Origin: an uncultured Pseudomonadota bacterium
GTDB taxonomy: Bacteria > Pseudomonadota > Alphaproteobacteria > UBA9219
Direction: 5' to 3'
Assembly: GCA_903824505.1 (NCBI GenBank)
Contig: CAIJXG010000136.1
Span: 1-48,702 of the forward strand
DNA length: 48,702 bases
Shown here: piece after piece, positions 5,532 through 48,626 of the stretch
How positions within the stretch are numbered: position 1 is the first letter of the stretch
Layout: every line of letters begins with the position of its first letter
Notes under the pieces: generated by a model
Databases searched by the model: none
What the model was told of the DNA's origin: nothing
Seen by the model: only the letters and a program-made list of their open reading frames with translations
Program-made: the position numbers and the translations under genes

Positions 5532-5641
5532 GCGTCACCTTCCCGCCCATGGTGGGGGGATGGCTTGCGCAATCAAATGTCGTGCGACGGGATTCCTTTG
5601 GACCCCCCGTGCGGTGTTTTTGTTGTTTGTGGAGAACAGAA

Positions 5642-6019
5642 GTGGCACGTATTGCGGGCGTTAACATTCCGGCGGTGAAGCCGTTACATATCGCGTTGCG
5701 TTATATCTATGGGATTGGGTCAACCAACGCGCTGGAGATCTGTGCGCGGATTGGTGTGGACCCGACCAAGCGCGTGAATCAGCTGACTGAAGGCGAAATT
5801 CTGAAGATTCGCGAAGATATCGACCAAAACTGCAAGGTTGAAGGCGATCTGCGTCGTGAAGTCGCGATGAATATCAAGCGGTTGATGGATTTGGGCTGCT
5901 ATCGCGGTCTGCGTCATCGCAAGGGGCTGCCTGTGCGTGGCCAACGCACCCACACCAACGCCCGCACCCGTAAGGGGAAGGCTAAGCCTATCGCCGGCAA
6001 GAAAATTGCCAAGAAATAA
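5642..6019 (+). CDS. rpsM: 30S ribosomal protein S13
   Basis: The sequence (V)ARIAGVNIP...[24 protein letters not shown] identifies S13. The GTG start follows GGAG, so the longer tracked ORF is an upstream extension. Confidence 0.96.
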
Positions 6020-8818: not shown

Positions 8819-9688
8819 ATGGCTCAATCCCACGTTGCGGGGCTATGTGGATTGAATCCAAGCGATTTAACCTTGCCCCGCAGACAAGGGGAACAGGTTT
8901 TTGCTTTTCTTGGCAAAGATCGAGTCTATCGTTTAGCCCGTAACCAAGCTTTCGCAGATTTTATGCCTGAGGAAGTATCTGTGCTCAAGGAACTTTATCG
9001 GCGCACTTGCGTGCCAACACCCGAAGTTCTTGATTTTAATAAAGAAAAAGGCCTTATGTGTATTTCTCGGCTTCAAGGCGAGTCTTTTTCTCCAGAGTCA
9101 TTCAGGACTCTGTCCCCTCAAATTCAAGAAGGAATTGGAGAGAAGATAGGGATGTTTCTTGCCCAAATGCACAGTTTTTTTCCCAAGAAAGAAACAATTG
9201 AAATTCTGGGACGCCTCCAAATTTTGAATCATATTAAGGCCGCCATTATGACAGAAGCAAACCCTCAAAATTTGCTACGTTTGAGAGAGGCCGAAAATTA
9301 TATGGATCAATATGGACGCACTGAAGGCCTTTATGTGCGACTTCATGGCGACTTGCATACAGGCAATATAATCCATGCTTCCACCCATCTCGATGATGTT
9401 GGCATCACGGATTTTGGTGCAACAAAATATGGTGTGCCTGCCTATGATTTTGTTGCATTGAAATGGCATTTTCCAGAGCGAGCCTACGAGAGGGCTAAGG
9501 CAACCTACGAGAAACTCATGCAGATTGAAATTCAGAATGAAACGGTTCAAATTCTTGCGGATATTCTTGATGTCGGGAGGTGTGGTGGGCTCCAATATAC
9601 AAATTGCGCATCTGTTGGTAAAAATCTTGAGCCGCAAAGGAGGAATCTTAACCATAAGCTCCCTCTCATCGCTTGCGCTCAAGGATGA
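8819..9688 (+). CDS. Phosphotransferase enzyme family (APH/choline-kinase-like) kinase
   Basis: The catalytic loop HGDLHTGNIIH and the motif ITDFG are present. The product is 289 aa and lies in a visibly AT-richer island. Confidence 0.75.
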   Translation: MAQSHVAGLCGLNPSDLTLPRRQGEQVFAFLGKDRVYRLARNQAFADFMPEEVSVLKELYRRTCVPTPEVLDFNKEKGLMCISRLQGESFSPESFRTLSPQIQEGIGEKIGMFLAQMHSFFPKKETIEILGRLQILNHIKAAIMTEANPQNLLRLREAENYMDQYGRTEGLYVRLHGDLHTGNIIHASTHLDDVGITDFGATKYGVPAYDFVALKWHFPERAYERAKATYEKLMQIEIQNETVQILADILDVGRCGGLQYTNCASVGKNLEPQRRNLNHKLPLIACAQG

Positions 9689-9734: not shown

Positions 9735-9826
9735 TGAATCCGCAGCCCATCCCACCTGCCCATCTTTGATGGTGCCGGACAGGATTTCTTGGGCCAGAGG
9801 GTTTTGGGGGCGCGTTGGATCACGCG
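9735..9826 (-). pseudogene. clpB: clpB C-terminal remnant (~30 codons)
   Basis: The minus-strand translation QNPLAQEILSGTIKDGQVG matches the conserved ClpB C-terminal motif (E/D)NPLAQ.ILSGE..DG. The homology begins exactly where the repeat at 9827-9853 ends. Confidence 0.45.
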
Positions 9827-9853
9827 TTTTTCCCATACTTTTAGAATTGCTGG
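9827..9853 (-). repeat. Solo GCAATTCTAAAAGTA module (repeat family A)
   Basis: The reverse complement CCAGCAATTCTAAAAGTATGGGAAAAA matches copies at 10561-10587, 20589-20605, 37871-37893, 42586-42606 and 48605-48626. Confidence 0.8.
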
Positions 9854-10497: not shown

Positions 10498-10587
10498 AGG
10501 CCAAGGTGCGGCCCGCGTGAGGGGGTAGGGAATTCTACAGCTCTTTCCGTAGAGCACTTCTTTTTCCCATACTTTTAGAATTACTGC
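10498..10587 (-). repeat. Partial copy of repeat family A (AATTCTAAAAGTA module plus one GGAAAGAGC.GTAGAAT arm)
   Basis: Its reverse complement aligns with 37871-37950 up to ...CGCGGGCC and then diverges. It lies in the divergent gmhB / histidine-kinase intergenic region. Confidence 0.8.
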
Positions 10588-15349: not shown

Positions 15350-15379
15350 TATACTTGGGTTCCTTCGGAACCCCGTAAG
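15350..15379. repeat. TATACTTGGG...hairpin repeat (family B-related)
   Basis: TATACTTGGGTTCCTTCGGAACCCCGTAAG is near-identical to 45677-45707 and related to the left end of 38041-38160. It contains the hairpin GGGTTCC/GGAACCC. Confidence 0.75.
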
Positions 15380-18043: not shown

Positions 18044-18155
18044 CGTGGGGCAGGAACAGGGCGTGTGCCGCGCTTGTAACAGATTTGACGGCGAAAGCCG
18101 AAGGTTAATCTTGGAAAAGGGGACTATTGAGTGAACGAAGTTAACCGCATAAAAA

Positions 18156-18298
18156 ACCGCGTCATGTGTGGACGGTTGTGGGCTGTCAAGGGTTTTGAGT
18201 AGACGGGAACCGTCGCCCCCCGCCAGAGTTTACCCCCCGTAAAAACGGGGGCGGGGACGAGCTGGGCACTTGTGTATAAACCTCAATCTATGACGCGG
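18156..18298. repeat. MITE-like element bounded by 9-bp inverted repeats CCGCGTCAT/ATGACGCGG
   Basis: The inverted repeats lie at 18156-18164 and 18290-18298. The internal hairpin CCCCCCGTAAAAACGGGGG is shared with the 7641-7665 element, and the CCGCGTCAT motif also occurs at 7615-7623 and 37857-37865. Confidence 0.6.
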
Positions 18299-18332
18299 CT
18301 AAGTATAATCGCGCTTGAATCTGGCTGTGTGT

Positions 18333-18560
18333 TTAATCGTCCGCATTGAGGCTTTTGAAGAGATTTTCAACGGAACCCACGGTCACAAGCTCCTCTCATC
18401 TCGCCGCCATGATGGCGGTGACTGTTTCAGCGTTTGGAACAAGCGGTTCAAAGGGAAGCGCCTTTTCCGCCACAACTCTTTTCAGCATAAGACGCACGGC
18501 ATCGGACAAAGAAAGCCCCCCTCGCTCGTGTGTAAGGTTCCTATTGTTGAAAAGATCCAA
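18333..18560 (-). pseudogene. RelB/DinJ-family antitoxin remnant with an in-frame TGA
   Basis: The minus-strand translation ...GLSLSDAVRLMLKRVVAEKALPFEPLVPNAETVTAIMAAR*EELVTVGSVENLFKSLNADD resembles DinJ (GLTISDLVRITLTKVAREKALPF...DLFDKL). The N-terminal ~25 aa are missing, there is a stop at 18396-18398, and no toxin ORF lies downstream. Confidence 0.55.
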
Positions 18561-19812
18561 TCATTTTAGCAAGTGAGTTTCTCACAAGCTTTGACGATTC
18601 TGCTTGATCTTCAAGTTCTTGTCTCCGGCGGCGTTCTTGTTCAGCCCTGTTGCGATCCAAGGTGACATCACCAACAGCCAGTTGAGCTACAGATCCATTC
18701 CCTCCTGCATGATCCATTCTGGCCTGATAGGGGCTGCGACCATTTGTTTGACAATCATCTGATGCACCCTGATCTATCCTATTGGCATTTTTATCAGCTA
18801 CACACTGTGTTGCCTGCGCTTTATGCATATCTTGATAAATGGGGAGCGCCGTTGCCGTCGCTGGGATCTGAAGATGATCAACCAGTTCAGCAAAACAGGC
18901 TTCTGCAGCGGATTTGCCGTTGTTCATCATGGACTCAACATACCGGTCATAAATGCCGATTATGTCATCTGCCGTTGGGCCATTGGGGCTTATACGACGA
19001 GCAGGGGGCTTCGGGTGAGCTTGCATAAGGCAGTAGGCGTAAGCGGCATAGAAAGAGTGTTCGTCATCCCCACTGGGAGTTTTTAGACTCAAAAAAGGAT
19101 CCGTATTGTTTGGAGGCACGACAAAATTGTCAGGCATTTTGATTTGATCTGGAAGATCTAAGCCAGGGCTATCATCCCAATCTGTCCCTTGACCCGAAGG
19201 GCAGCCTGCTTTTTGATTCATATCGGCTTCGTCTGCATAGGTTGGCCCCGTGCCTCCACTTGGTACATTCTGCGAGGGGGTGCATTTAACAAAGCCTGCA
19301 CTAATTAACCATTTCAGCTTCGCAACTTTTTTATCAGGGGTGGAAATAGCCCCAATTGCATTTCGTGTCATAGCCCCAGCAAGAGTTTTATTCATTTTCT
19401 GCAAAACTCTGTGGGCATCCGACGACTGTTTGAAGGGACATAGGTTTTGTGTATCAGTATTCTCAACATAAGCAGTTCTGCCTGTGACGCGTTCTGCCGT
19501 AGTCTCCCCATTGGCGCCGGATGCATTCCCTACTGATTCCATAACTCCCTGAAATTCATTAGCGTAGGTGTCCATTCTTTGGTTGATCTGGGCAAGCTTT
19601 GTATCGATTGCCATTAGTTGAGGCCAAATGGTGAGTATTTCGAATAAGAGCAGGCCTGATGTTGCTGATTCAGTGACGGGATCAGATACTAAATTAGCTC
19701 TAGCCGATTCTATCGGTACAAGAAGGCCGCTTAAAAGAATAAAGAAAAAGATTTTAATCAGATAACGTGATCCAAACTTTTCTTTTTGACAAGAGGGAGC
19801 GCTTTTAATCAT
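18541..19812 (-). CDS. Secreted Cys-rich hypothetical protein (423 aa from the internal Met)
   Basis: The start at MIKS... is preceded by GAGGGA. A signal peptide (...LLVPIESARA) is present, the mature part has 7 Cys, and the C-terminus carries a charged coiled-coil-like tail. The region is AT-richer and no family is recognised. Confidence 0.7.
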   Translation of the reverse strand: MIKSAPSCQKEKFGSRYLIKIFFFILLSGLLVPIESARANLVSDPVTESATSGLLLFEILTIWPQLMAIDTKLAQINQRMDTYANEFQGVMESVGNASGANGETTAERVTGRTAYVENTDTQNLCPFKQSSDAHRVLQKMNKTLAGAMTRNAIGAISTPDKKVAKLKWLISAGFVKCTPSQNVPSGGTGPTYADEADMNQKAGCPSGQGTDWDDSPGLDLPDQIKMPDNFVVPPNNTDPFLSLKTPSGDDEHSFYAAYAYCLMQAHPKPPARRISPNGPTADDIIGIYDRYVESMMNNGKSAAEACFAELVDHLQIPATATALPIYQDMHKAQATQCVADKNANRIDQGASDDCQTNGRSPYQARMDHAGGNGSVAQLAVGDVTLDRNRAEQERRRRQELEDQAESSKLVRNSLAKMIGSFQQ

Positions 19813-19819
19813 TTTTCCC

Positions 19820-20464
19820 TCACTGCAGCTGAAATTGGGAATAGAGGAACGGCGTCGTCTGATACATGCGGGTGTAATTAGCAACATTGCCCAAGGTGAT
19901 TTTTGTATTGCCACTCCCTAGGCAAGGTAGATTGAAATTGGGCACTTGAAGATTAAAATTAAGGGGAGGTATAGGTAGGCAGATGCCAACATTTCGAATT
20001 TGGCTTACGATATTATTAACTTCTTGTAAAACAGCTTGGCACACTTGGTTGATCACTTGTAGGATAATCTTCATTATCTGTTTCTTGGCAAAATCCATGA
20101 CCACTTGTAAAAGCATGTTTGGATCGCTAAGATTTCCAAGCACATCAAACATGTCCATAAGAGGTTGGACCGCTTGAAGGACGTTTTTAACACAGTTGTT
20201 CACAGAAGGTATGATGTCGGCGGTTTGAGCGGCCGCCCACGGGCGGCTGGCTGTAAAAAGATTGCCGTAAAAGTTTTGTCTATTTGTCTGATATTGTTGA
20301 TTGATTGGTAGCTGCATATCATTATCCGGATTTGCCGTATCACATTCGCTGGCAATTTGATTAACATCACGCTGCTGTGCCGCCCACGCCTTTTGCGGGC
20401 CGAGGGAGAACAGGCCGAAAAAGAGAATCAGCGTAAAGGCTAAGAAATGGCCTTTTTTCAGCAT
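19820..20464 (-). CDS. Secreted Q/N-rich hypothetical protein (~214 aa)
   Basis: A canonical signal peptide MLKKGHFLAFTLILFFGLFSLGPQKAWA is present, along with 5 Cys and a helical central part. The stop lies 7 nt before the start of the downstream 423-aa gene, consistent with an operon. No family is recognised. Confidence 0.7.
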   Translation of the reverse strand: MLKKGHFLAFTLILFFGLFSLGPQKAWAAQQRDVNQIASECDTANPDNDMQLPINQQYQTNRQNFYGNLFTASRPWAAAQTADIIPSVNNCVKNVLQAVQPLMDMFDVLGNLSDPNMLLQVVMDFAKKQIMKIILQVINQVCQAVLQEVNNIVSQIRNVGICLPIPPLNFNLQVPNFNLPCLGSGNTKITLGNVANYTRMYQTTPFLYSQFQLQ

Positions 20465-20562
20465 AGAAACCCCCGAAAACCAAAGAGACAGGATCCTCAA
20501 AACCCCGCCGGACGATGGAAGGAGTATACTATCAAGTGCAGGATTAGGAAATAGTTAATTGT

Positions 20563-20572
20563 GGGGGGGGGG
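20563..20572. repeat. G10 homopolymer (poly-C on the coding strand of the secreted-protein operon)
   Basis: I counted this directly in the sequence. It lies about 34 nt upstream of a candidate -10 (TATACT, complement of 20523-20528) for the minus-strand operon. Confidence 0.9.
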
Positions 20573-20605
20573 CAGCAATTCTATCCCTACTTTTAGAATT
20601 GCTGC
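20572..20605. repeat. Perfect 12-bp-stem hairpin built from two inverted GCAGCAATTCTA modules (family A)
   Basis: GCAGCAATTCTA, a 10-nt loop and TAGAATTGCTGC sit immediately 3' of lgt and abut the G10 tract. Confidence 0.85.
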
Positions 20606-37847: not shown

Positions 37848-37996
37848 AATCACCTTCCGCGTCATGGACCGGCAATTCTAAAAGTATAGGAAAAGAGGCC
37901 TGCCCTACGGAAAGAGCGGTAGAATGCCATCCCCCTCGCGGGCCTCGACGCTGTGCGTCAAGCCCAGTGAGGTGGCGGGGATTCTACCGCTCTTCC
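37848..37996 (+). repeat. Complete repeat family A element (MITE-like)
   Basis: The element runs AATCACCTTCCGCGTCAT, then GCAATTCTAAAAGTATAGG, then an inverted-repeat pair GGAAAGAGCGGTAGAAT (37909-37925) / ATTCTACCGCTCTTCC (37981-37996) around a GC-rich ~55-nt core. That core is shared, inverted, with 42501-42557. Confidence 0.85.
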
Positions 37997-38040: not shown

Positions 38041-38160
38041 TATACTCGGGCACCTTCGGTCCCCGAACGTTTTGTCCGCGCAAAAGGCGCATCAGCTTCG
38101 CCCTCGCGCGTGTTTTGCACGGAATCGAATCCTTTCCGCTTTCCAAGAAACCCGAGTATA
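38041..38160. repeat. 120-bp MITE-like element with perfect 10-bp terminal inverted repeats TATACTCGGG/CCCGAGTATA (family B)
   Basis: The TIRs were read directly from the sequence. The right-arm sequence recurs, inverted, at 48564-48594. The left arm is related to 15350-15379 and 45677-45707. Confidence 0.8.
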
Positions 38161-42466: not shown

Positions 42467-42482
42467 AAGCCTACAAGGCGGC

Positions 42483-42606
42483 GGGAAGAGCGGTAGAATT
42501 CCCGCCCCCTTGCGGGGCTTGACGCACAGCGTCGAGGCCAGCAGGCTGGTGGGAGGGAATTCTGCCGCTCTTCGGCACGTTGGTTTCCTCCCACTTTTTT
42601 AGAATT
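42483..42606 (-). repeat. Complete repeat family A element in inverted orientation
   Basis: GGGAAGAGCGGTAGAATT (42483-42500) and AATTCTGCCGCTCTTC (42558-42573) flank a core whose GGGCTTGACGCACAGCGTCGAGGCC is the reverse complement of the 37926-37980 core. A degenerate ...CCACTTTTTTAGAATTC module follows. Confidence 0.85.
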
Positions 42607-42817: not shown

Positions 42818-44689
42818 ATGACATATGTAAGAACAAATGATGCTTCAACTGGCGGACCAGCCTTTGAGTCGGGGGCTGATTCAGTTAACGGGGAGTCCCG
42901 AATTGCTGGTGGCTCTGTTGCGGCTGCGGATCGGCCTGATGATAGCAATCATATTGGGCCCGTTGTGGTCAATCAAGAAGACCCTAAACCGTCAGCGACT
43001 CTTCTCGATTCCACCTCCGCGATTGATTTGCAGAATTACGTCTCTTCTGGGCAAAGCCAAAAAGAAGAAGAGCAACGCGAGGCCAAATACGACAACGATA
43101 CCCTGTTGGCTGCGGCTTATTATATGCGCGCCCAGCTGCTTGTGGAAGCATATCGTACAGGTCGTCACAATTCAGAATTTAGGGACAACTGGAATAAACA
43201 GGGTTTTCTGCCCGGGGTTAGTATTGGTGATGGCCGGTCCACAGGGCCAATAGGTGTTCCTTCGGCTGAGGTTATGGATGCCATCCTTAATGCTGCAGAT
43301 GCGGCCGGGGTTAATGCGTCTGAATTATTAGCAATGGCTTTCAGGGAAAGTTCTTTCAATCCAGATGCACACGCTCGCGATAGCTCTGCCTTGGGGCTTT
43401 TTCAGTTCATTGATGGTACGTTTCTTGAGCAAGTTTATAAACACGGGCGCGAAGCTGGTATAGACTCCCGTTATGTGGAAGCGGTTCAGCGCGACTCAAA
43501 GGGGGAATATCAAGTAACTGGTGGTTTAAGACAAGAAGTTCTTAATTTGCGCAGGAATATAACTATTTCCGCAAATCTTGGAGCTTTGTTTGCCAAGGAT
43601 AATCTGGCAGCAATCGAGAGCCGTTTCGGTGAAGAGGCTGTCACTGGCAGAATGTATGAACCTCATTTTTTGGGACAGGGTGGCGCCGCAGGTTTGCTCT
43701 CAGCACTTCAAACAAATCCGAATGGGCCTGCTGCTACTATTCTTCCAAAAGCGGCAAGCGTTGGAACGAACCACAGTCTTTTCTATAAACCAGATGGGAC
43801 CCCTTATACTGTTCAAGAGCTTGACCAGAAGCTTATCAACGTGACCGCATCGGCGGCGGGCCGTTATGACAAGATGGTTGCGGCTGCACGGGGACAAGGG
43901 AGTGAAACGGCGGGGCCAACAAAAGCTGCTGAATTCCCTGCGGCGTCACCTGAATTCTCTTCTGGCGGGTCGTTGGATCCTCATGTGGCGACTTATGTTA
44001 TAGAGACGGGTAAGCTTTATTTTCAAGGACAAGTCTTCACCATAGGTTCTGGTTATGGAGACAAGCATAATGATCCGTTGAGTCAGAATGAAAAACATGG
44101 TGTGACTCCGACGGGGGTCTATCTTTTGGGGGGGTATGATCCTAAACATTCTGTTCACATGAAAAATAATTCATGGATAACAATTCCCGTTTTACATATG
44201 ACGGCGATAACTCCATGGAACACACCCAATAGAGATGCCCCTTCCTTTCTTTTTCACGCAGCAAATAGTCCGAATGATCAGAGCCAAGGGTGTCCGGTTG
44301 TTTCACCAGAGGATGCGCGGACTCTTTTTGGTTTATACCATGCCGGACAATTGACAACGATGAATGTTGTTGCAACGGAAGAAGATCGGTTCTCTCCCAC
44401 TAATATGGCGTCAAATTCTAAAGAGAGAAGAAACGGTAATACCGTTTCTTCTGGCAGGGTTCAGGCAGACAACGCTGCTGCTCAATTCATGGAAGGGGTT
44501 AAAAACGATCTGAATACAGGTGCAGCGGCTGCTCTTCTTGCCCAAAAGCCTCAACCTTCTGAGACGCTTTTTGGATTGAAGGCGGATATGGCCTCGACAC
44601 CAAACAAAATCACCGACACAGCCACTAAGCCCCGATCTCTGGCTGCTTTGGCTTTTAAGCCCATCAAAGAGCCTGCCGCAGCTCTTTAA
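42818..44689 (+). CDS. Two-domain peptidoglycan-active effector-like protein: SLT lytic transglycosylase domain plus Tlde1/DUF2778-like L,D-transpeptidase-fold domain
   Basis: The RBS GGGAGG is present. There is no signal peptide and the N-terminus is hydrophilic and disordered. SLT motifs are AMAFRESSFNP, SSALGLFQFIDGTF and YEPHFLGQGGA. The C-terminal part has GSGYGDKHNDPLSQNEKHGVTPTGVYLLG and FLFHAANSPNDQSQGCPVV (the H...S.GC catalytic signature). The island is AT-richer. Confidence 0.75.
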   Translation: MTYVRTNDASTGGPAFESGADSVNGESRIAGGSVAAADRPDDSNHIGPVVVNQEDPKPSATLLDSTSAIDLQNYVSSGQSQKEEEQREAKYDNDTLLAAAYYMRAQLLVEAYRTGRHNSEFRDNWNKQGFLPGVSIGDGRSTGPIGVPSAEVMDAILNAADAAGVNASELLAMAFRESSFNPDAHARDSSALGLFQFIDGTFLEQVYKHGREAGIDSRYVEAVQRDSKGEYQVTGGLRQEVLNLRRNITISANLGALFAKDNLAAIESRFGEEAVTGRMYEPHFLGQGGAAGLLSALQTNPNGPAATILPKAASVGTNHSLFYKPDGTPYTVQELDQKLINVTASAAGRYDKMVAAARGQGSETAGPTKAAEFPAASPEFSSGGSLDPHVATYVIETGKLYFQGQVFTIGSGYGDKHNDPLSQNEKHGVTPTGVYLLGGYDPKHSVHMKNNSWITIPVLHMTAITPWNTPNRDAPSFLFHAANSPNDQSQGCPVVSPEDARTLFGLYHAGQLTTMNVVATEEDRFSPTNMASNSKERRNGNTVSSGRVQADNAAAQFMEGVKNDLNTGAAAALLAQKPQPSETLFGLKADMASTPNKITDTATKPRSLAALAFKPIKEPAAAL

Positions 44690-45676: not shown

Positions 45677-45707
45677 TATACTTGGGTTTCTTCGGAACTC
45701 CTTAAGG
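45677..45707. repeat. TATACTTGGG...hairpin repeat (family B-related)
   Basis: TATACTTGGGTTTCTTCGGAACTCCTTAAGG is near-identical to 15350-15379. It lies between the rne stop and the AAA+ ORF start. Confidence 0.75.
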
Positions 45708-48500: not shown

Positions 48501-48563
48501 CAAACTGTTTTAACGGTTTATTTTTCATTGCATTCTTGCTGCCCTTCGGAAAAGCCGCCAGAT

Positions 48564-48626
48564 ATACTCGGTTTCCTTGGAAAGCGGAAAGGATGCTCCC
48601 CCGTGCCAGCAATTCTAAAAGTAGGG
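48564..48626. repeat. Composite repeat: a family B arm followed by a family A AATTCTAAAAGTA module
   Basis: TATACTCGGTTTCCTTGGAAAGCGGAAAGGAT matches the reverse complement of 38129-38160. GCCAGCAATTCTAAAAGTAGGG matches 37871-37890. Confidence 0.8.

Follow-up and report, generated by a model that had tools for sequence, protein, structure and literature searches.

Two adjacent genes of an uncultured alphaproteobacterium encode probable, highly divergent TraL-like and TraW/IcmX-like proteins of a type IVB secretion system

In type IVB secretion systems (T4BSSs), TraW of the IncI plasmids and IcmX of Legionella are equivalents of VirB5, while TraY and DotA are equivalents of VirB6 (PMC12624023). 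IcmX carries a signal peptide, its N- and C-terminal helices flank an extended domain, and a pentamer of it on DotA gates the channel (PMC12501162). TraL of plasmid pCTX-M3 also carries a signal peptide, and deleting the tested transfer genes of this plasmid lowered or abolished transfer, except for orf35, orf36 and orf46 (PMC6112013). In a transposon screen of pESBL, TraL and TraW each scored 1.00 and share a column with the other Tra proteins (PMC4288162); both proteins are needed for transfer (PMC6112013, PMC4288162). Here, we describe two adjacent genes, A and B, on a contig of 48,702 nucleotides (CAIJXG010000136.1) from an uncultured alphaproteobacterium, the whole of which is referred to below as the window. 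Comparisons of sequence profiles suggest that A and B are probably highly divergent TraL-like and TraW/IcmX-like (VirB5-equivalent) type IVB proteins, in role as well as in relationship. The pair is not an unknown system: it is probably a very divergent, unusually fast-evolving version of two type IVB components, here found on their own.

The two genes lie in tandem on the minus strand, 7 nt apart and with a GAGGGA ribosome-binding site for the second, an arrangement described in the initial annotation, which was made from the sequence alone, and in agreement with the coordinates and sequence:

20464..19820, minus strand: gene A, intact open reading frame (ORF) with an ATG start, 214 aa
20464-20381, minus strand: Sec-type signal peptide of A, residues 1-28, MLKKGHFLAFTLILFFGLFSLGPQKAWA / AQQ (cleavage at ...QKAWA/AQQ)
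19822-19820, minus strand: stop codon (TGA) of gene A, 7 nt before the ATG of gene B
19821-19816, minus strand: ribosome-binding site (GAGGGA) of B, which shares bases with the stop codon of A
19812..18541, minus strand: gene B, intact ORF with an ATG start, 423 aa
19812-19696, minus strand: Sec-type signal peptide of B, residues 1-39, ...IKIFFFILLSGLLVPIESARA / NLV (cleavage at ...ESARA/NLV)

The gap of 7 nt would imply translational coupling or co-transcription. The annotated frame was the best of six for both genes under a codon model derived from the housekeeping genes of the window. This result, together with homologues that share conserved motifs and gene order in dozens of genomes, argues against the idea that the ORFs arose by chance or were mis-called in an AT-rich spacer, an explanation favored only by the lack of database names and one that we regard as extremely improbable.

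The signal peptides were assigned by eye, using the n-, h- and c-regions and the AXA rule. Both N-termini have a basic n-region, a hydrophobic core of 14-15 residues and an A-x-A site, and an A-x-A-type signal peptide is kept throughout both the A and B families, in every homologue found, which agrees with the Sec export proposed at the outset. The five cysteines of A are all in the mature protein (positions 41, 91, 142, 162, and 181), as are seven of the eight cysteines of B, consistent with the earlier description of a secreted and probably disulfide-bonded two-gene operon. Mature A is helical and rich in Q and N, and it carries the motifs ICLPIP and C-x-G. Mature B is predicted to be all-alpha, with seven conserved cysteines, the motif DCQTNGRSxxQA at residues 353-364 and a charged C-terminal helix.

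Neither protein had a related match in Pfam, NCBIfam, PHROGs, PADLOC or the PDB sequences, where only noise was returned. Profile searches of the PDB with the A-family and B-family alignments also returned noise only, and a word-indexed search of 5.8 billion proteins with A, B, and the B alignment retrieved only the proteins themselves and one relative. With B as the query, phmmer run exhaustively over 1.84 billion cluster representatives detected 17 remote homologues of 400-455 aa, with 24-33% identity and E values of 5e-13 to 9e-4; GTDB genomes contained over 20 additional copies of the B family. The initial annotation had called both proteins unrecognizable. This did not prove to be the case, as B has at least 17 remote homologues and profile-profile comparison ties B to TraW/IcmX and A to TraL. 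All full-length members of the B family carry a signal peptide and seven cysteines at conserved spacing, and the family motifs are PFxAALxFCQ and DCQTNGRSxLQAxHD; its invariant residues Q333, C337, C354, G358, and S360 are kept in the B of the window. The A family is defined by five conserved cysteines, ICLPIP, C-x-G and a Y-x-Y-x-Q-F end, with C91, C142, C162, P164, P166, C181, and G183 invariant. A and B, when compared, were unrelated to each other. Using tblastn, neither B nor protein P0009 had a match in the PLSDB plasmids, and the B family is thus absent from known plasmids at the BLAST level.

The relationship to the type IVB proteins emerged from profile-profile comparison. Among 1,407 ORFs, the best non-self match of the B profile was TraW of plasmid ColIb-P9, and that of the A profile was ColIb-P9 TraL; the N-terminal part of B, up to the first cysteine, also had TraW as its best non-self match. 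For the hhalign comparisons, the TraW/IcmX alignment contained eight sequences (from IncI1, IncK, IncL/M and other plasmids, and Legionella), and the TraL alignment seven. The B family matched TraW/IcmX with a score of 42.6 (probability 58%, E 1e-4) over 136 columns, pairing residues 250-402 of B with 213-352 of TraW, and a B profile enlarged to 51 rows gave a score of 52.8 (88.9%, E 2.4e-6) over 146 columns. The A family matched TraL with a score of 38.6 (77%, E 2e-5) and two cysteines aligned, C91 and C142 of A corresponding to C63 and C92 of TraL; with 23 rows, the score was 43.0 (89.5%, E 2e-6) over 49 columns. The controls stayed well below these values: for B, reversed profiles scored about 17-18 and 40 block shuffles at most 20.5; for A, the reversed profile scored 17.4 and 60 block shuffles at most 26.7; and the cross-comparisons (A with TraW, B with TraL) reached at most 17.7. 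For the enlarged profiles, the scores of the reversed and cross controls were 18.4 and 15.3 for B, and 14.0 and 12.2 for A. Both relationships are therefore specific, reciprocal and stronger when more sequences are included, which we regard as suggestive.

Several observations weigh against this assignment. The hhalign probabilities of 58-89% are below the value of >95% that is usually taken as certain, and the aligned stretch covers only about 140 of the 423 residues of B and about 50 of the 214 residues of A. A profile search for a characterized family did yield TraW/IcmX and TraL, albeit at a level that is suggestive only. At E<=1, A and B had no related match in Pfam or NCBIfam, including the models NF033888 (conj_TraW) and NF038225 (IcmX_IVB), and none of 18 B-family members matched either of these two models, whereas ColIb-P9 TraW and Legionella IcmX match their own NCBIfam models at E 1e-163 to 1e-167. 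The empty scans are explained by the absence of a Pfam family for any of TraW, IcmX, and TraL and by the narrowness of the two NCBIfam equivalog models, those of TraW and IcmX. In addition, nothing was found when the B family was compared by hhalign with single sequences of Legionella IcmX, ColIb-P9 TraW or TraF; the signal between B and TraW/IcmX appears only profile against profile. The AlphaFold2 model of B, computed with the family alignment, was of moderate confidence (mean predicted local distance difference test score [pLDDT] 61, predicted template modeling score 0.54), and a Foldseek search with it returned nothing from the PDB at E<1. This all-alpha model places helices 47-116 and 388-422 around a domain spanning residues 125-370, although the N-terminal third is unreliable, with a pLDDT below 50 at residues 30-122. 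The helix at 388-422 corresponds to the highly charged C-terminal tail that had been noticed in the sequence. A single-sequence prediction of A had a pLDDT of 45.6 and was unusable.

In its general build, B resembles TraW and IcmX. All are proteins of about 400-470 aa with a Sec signal peptide; the tentative model of B suggests a coarse layout like theirs, with helical N- and C-terminal parts around a cysteine-containing middle domain. The profile similarity is collinear, from the N-terminus to the first cysteine and again over the C-terminal ~145 columns. The genes of TraW and IcmX adjoin DotA/TraY, as does that of B in at least one relative (locus L092, see below). B differs from them by its seven conserved cysteines and its DCQTNGRS motif, both of which are lacking in TraW and IcmX, and by being preceded, where both genes are resolved, by a TraL-like gene and not by TraV or IcmW. 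It also diverges at a much higher rate than the other parts of its machine and, in the window, has no T4BSS gene adjacent to it.

A, in turn, resembles TraL of IncI1 and IncM plasmids (115-170 aa), likewise a small periplasmic protein with a signal peptide, and shares with it the motif pair C-[LV]-x-x-I...LP-x-[FL]-[PS]-S and Q-V-C-x-A, which contains the two aligned cysteines. Unlike TraL, A is longer and has an extra C-terminal module (ICLPIP...C-x-G...Y-x-Y-x-Q-F) with two more cysteines. A further point against the assignment is gene order. In ColIb-P9, traL (64153-64500) lies between the LPD7/SogL gene (sogL) and traM, and in IncI plasmids traL and traW are about 9 kb apart and not in one operon, whereas A directly precedes B. 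ColIb-P9 TraV, encoded by the gene before traW, was considered as a counterpart of A and rejected, as it has no signal peptide and no resemblance to A.

The initial annotation had suggested a comparison with VirB5/TrbJ-like folds. The direction was right, in that TraW/IcmX is the VirB5 equivalent, but TrbJ itself gave noise, and the Foldseek search had no match. VirB5 and TrbJ of type IVA systems are helical proteins with a signal peptide, as is B, and the slot that B would share with them is that of a periplasmic pentamer capping a VirB6-like channel or a pilus tip (PMC12624023). Some B-family members start with V-x-D-P after the signal peptide, comparable to I-P-V-I-D of TrbJ, a lead obtained by eye only. 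The VirB5/TrbJ models had no match in the Pfam and NCBIfam scans, none of the 18 B-family members had any Pfam match, and hhalign of the B and A families against R751 TrbJ gave noise (probability 0.2% and 0.1%). B is also about twice the size of TrbJ.

The genomic context of the homologues points to the same type of machine. A DNA pattern for the motif was used in the search for loci of the B family. In all eight loci first examined (L084, L085, L086, L087, L092, L097, L098, and L099) an A-like gene (170-243 aa, BLASTP to A with E 1e-7 to 5e-13) lies directly upstream of the B-like gene, with a gap of 10-19 nt. In a later scan of GTDB, the profiles detected only one of the two in about 10 loci, so that the pairing is not established there; wherever both genes were resolved, they were adjacent. 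The position next to DotA/TraY resembles that of icmX in Legionella and of traW in IncI plasmids, and every locus with several kilobases of flanking sequence has the pair beside type IVB secretion genes. In L084, L087, and L098 (the latter a chromosomal contig of 118 kb), the order is A-like, B-like, a 274-aa protein, a TrbN/IagB-like lytic transglycosylase, a DsbG-like protein, a small membrane protein, DotD/TraH, DotC/TraI, DotB/TraJ, IcmT/TraK, PilL, PilN, and PilO. The DsbG-like gene (L087 5305-6177, with homologues in L084 and L098), two genes beyond the cysteine-rich pair and inside the T4BSS cluster, encodes a DsbG/DsbC-like CPHC thiol:disulfide interchange protein (NCBIfam DsbG, E 2e-30), comparable to the thioredoxin-fold TrbB carried by IncI plasmids. 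In L092 (JARLJD010000102.1, GTDB metagenome-assembled genome [MAG] MAG_CA70), the pair and a DotA/TraY gene (TIGR04346, E 3e-97) are divergently oriented. The DotD-C-B cluster of MAG_CA70 is on another contig, L121 (JARLJD010000116.1), which had no match to the A and B profiles; this split of the T4BSS rests on correct binning. A T4BSS on a Bosea plasmid was examined as a possible match and set aside, as its layout is different and it is without A or B.

A scan of GTDB with the DotB of L087 revealed 80 loci, nearly all of them in MAGs of Micavibrio or unnamed Alphaproteobacteria, and one in the cultured M. aeruginosavorus HCB189. Matches to the A and/or B profiles were found 4-8 kb upstream of DotB in 18 of the 80 loci (20 with iterated profiles). 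The iterated profiles also revealed, in two Micavibrio MAGs (L139 3-5646, DYDA01000004.1; L140 1-5730, DYNT01000001.1), a row of four B-like ORFs, each about 400-540 aa long, that precedes the T4BSS cluster; these ORFs represent a tandem paralogue expansion of the putative VirB5 equivalent. A and B both represent real families. Their hosts are Micavibrio-like Alphaproteobacteria, in whose genomes the pair is in physical linkage with T4BSS genes.

This context bears on the idea that A and B could be a secreted effector or adhesin pair acting on a host or prey cell without a type IV machine. Such a role would fit secreted, cysteine-rich, Q/N-rich and rapidly diverging proteins for which no confident fold match was obtained, in a family whose hosts include the epibiotic predator Micavibrio. 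However, all loci with enough flanking sequence have the pair within or adjoining T4BSS structural genes at a conserved position, and the profile matches to two structural Tra proteins are specific and reciprocal. We therefore consider an effector or adhesin pair improbable and prefer the assignment to TraL-like and TraW/IcmX-like components.

The pair is far more variable than its surroundings. Across 14 loci, the median pairwise identity was 28% for A and 27% for B (16 of the 91 B pairs were not alignable by BLASTP), compared with 79% for DotB, 70% for the 274-aa protein, 69% for DotC, 69% for TrbN, 67% for IcmT, 60% for DotD, and 51% for DsbG. Values of 27-28% against 51-79% for seven neighbors indicate that the pair is a hypervariable cassette. 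Upstream of the pair, L087 and L098 share a flanking gene that is 83% identical. The gene just upstream of the A-like gene (L087 1242-1760, L098 8651-9268, L092 3655-4050) encodes a small, secreted or lipoprotein-like protein that contains cysteines. No similarity between these genes of the different loci was detectable by BLASTP, and the variable region may therefore hold three genes. In the window, lgt is directly upstream of A, and this small cysteine-containing gene has no counterpart.

The initial annotation had placed the pair in an AT-rich island, compositionally distinct from slt and lgt and typical of horizontal acquisition. The pair indeed sits between lgt and slt, beside a remnant of a RelB antitoxin, and the difference in composition is clear: the GC content is 0.42-0.49 over positions 18500-20500, which cover A and B, against 0.55-0.59 in the flanks, and the GC content at third codon positions (GC3) is 0.47 for A and 0.39 for B, compared with 0.58-0.71 for genes such as lgt, slt, fusA, and tuf. 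A and B are, however, also lower in GC and GC3 than the T4BSS neighbors in L084, L087, and L098, although the dip is deepest in the window, so that the AT-rich island is partly a family trait. Horizontal acquisition is plausible in view of the low GC3 and of the truncated RelB at the junction, while the argument from composition is weakened by the AT-richness of the relatives.

The degraded antitoxin that had been noted beside the pair was confirmed by Pfam, and its position is as follows:

18334..18527, minus strand: RelB/DinJ antitoxin remnant (Pfam PF04221, E 8.4e-9, profile positions 21-62 of 82)

The remnant is without its first ~20 codons and is interrupted by an in-frame stop. Neither an adjoining RelE ORF nor a complete ribbon-helix-helix N-terminus or intact frame was found. 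The homology to RelB starts about 14 nt past the stop codon of B, at the 3' junction of the low-GC islet.

None of the T4BSS genes of L084, L087 or L092 has a homologue in the 48.7-kb window, which holds no other T4BSS gene. This again weighs against the proposed assignment, as far as a function in this genome is concerned. The pair could be an orphan remnant: the recombination event or mobile element that brought it would also have destroyed a relBE locus, and with no T4BSS to serve, the genes would be functionless and decaying cargo. Its solitary position, the strongly deviant GC3 (0.39-0.47 against ~0.64) and the truncated RelB at the junction would all fit, and no relative of the host was found that could show conservation of the pair. 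The host is a deep-branching alphaproteobacterium whose elongation factor G is at most 74% identical to that of any GTDB species representative, and a search with Slt for synteny or an empty site retrieved no close relative from the GTDB genomes or the JGI metagenomes, so the comparison with close relatives suggested earlier yielded none. Other contigs with B were from the same strain (1 mismatch in 21 kb). Decay, though, is difficult to reconcile with two full-length ORFs that keep every invariant family residue, intact signal peptides on both proteins and the ribosome-binding site of B. Furthermore, low GC is a trait of the family, and the pair of MAG_CA70 is also on another contig than DotD-C-B, which makes separation from the core genes normal for this system. 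We consider an orphan remnant unlikely. The retained residues and the similar separation in MAG_CA70 favor an intact, horizontally exchanged TraL-like/TraW-like cassette that may serve a T4BSS encoded elsewhere; within the broader assignment to TraL-like and TraW/IcmX-like proteins, we give this more specific proposal about an even chance.

Under the proposed assignment, A and B would be exported by the Sec pathway into the periplasm and would then undergo disulfide formation and oxidative folding, in which a DsbG-like isomerase, encoded nearby in the sister loci, could assist. B, probably together with A, would assemble on the DotA/TraY channel, where it could serve as a gate or as a contact-facing tip. 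The rapid divergence of B may reflect exposure to the target cell or cassette exchange. In this genome, the low-GC islet may have been acquired or replaced by recombination, its 3' junction truncating relB, and would work with T4BSS genes located elsewhere. Since the numbers of conserved cysteines are odd in both A (five) and B (seven), an intermolecular disulfide between them is possible. A more speculative proposal, which we consider doubtful, is that a disulfide-linked A-B hetero-complex forms an exchangeable, target-facing tip or gate, that is, a swappable specificity module of the chromosomal Micavibrio-like T4BSS. If so, the divergence, the tandem paralogues and the mobility of a stand-alone low-GC cassette would represent selection for prey or partner specificity in hosts that are Micavibrio-like and possibly predatory or epibiotic.

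With this assignment, two genes that look like ORFans would become annotatable T4BSS parts, and the pair in this genome would hint at a T4BSS that may lie elsewhere in it. The loci described above would represent a little-studied chromosomal type IVB system, widespread in Micavibrio-like Alphaproteobacteria, in which the VirB5 equivalent and a TraL-like partner form one operon. IcmX/DotA has only recently been recognized as the channel gate of Dot/Icm, and an IcmX-like subunit that evolves several-fold faster than the remainder of its machine, is duplicated in tandem in some genomes and relocates as a cassette would offer a natural system for the question of tip or gate recognition. TraL of the IncI plasmids, which is required for conjugation yet for which we know of no assigned mechanism, would gain a candidate partner in TraW.

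Upstream of A, the following elements were observed:

20487-20509, minus strand: hairpin resembling a terminator, with a T-rich run after it, just ~23 nt upstream of the A start codon
20523..20550, minus strand: putative sigma-70-like promoter of the pair (TTCCTA, 16 nt, TATACT), weak and read by eye
20563-20572: G10/C10 tract, just downstream of lgt and upstream of A
20572-20583 / 20594-20605: 12-bp hairpin, just downstream of lgt

The promoter candidate was not among the output of a promoter consensus scan. The hairpin at 20487-20509 could be where lgt transcription ends, or it could act as an attenuator ahead of the A-B operon. The G10 tract and the 12-bp hairpin, both cited in the initial annotation as marks of the island, are present, but the hairpin is one copy of a repeat dispersed over the window and is not specific to the islet. 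The miniature inverted-repeat transposable element (MITE) proposed on the other side, at ~18050-18330, could not be confirmed: this stretch merely folds into hairpins and has no second copy in the window. Three kinds of repeats were found in the window:

9818-9852, 10552-10586, 20570-20604, 37869-37894, and 48605-48626, both orientations: dispersed intergenic repeat with the core CCCATACTTTTAGAATTGCTGG
37908-37996 and 42482-42553: internally palindromic element of ~72-90 nt, two copies, 76-90% alike
15350-15379, 45677-45706, 48563-48592, and 38117-38160 (inverted): short dispersed repeat TATACTTGGGTTCCTTCGGAACCCCGTAAG with a small hairpin

The first of these looks like a repetitive extragenic palindromic (REP)-like element of this genome, and the second, in contrast to the stretch at ~18050-18330, could be a small MITE/REP family. 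The sole Rfam match in the window was Alpha_RBS, the alpha operon ribosome-binding site, at 5573-5674 on the plus strand (41.8 bits, against a gathering score of 38). Two further genes of the window have a foreign-looking composition:

42818-44689, plus strand: 623-aa protein with SLT lytic-transglycosylase and YkuD L,D-transpeptidase domains, GC3 0.40
8819-9688, plus strand: APH-family kinase, GC3 0.38

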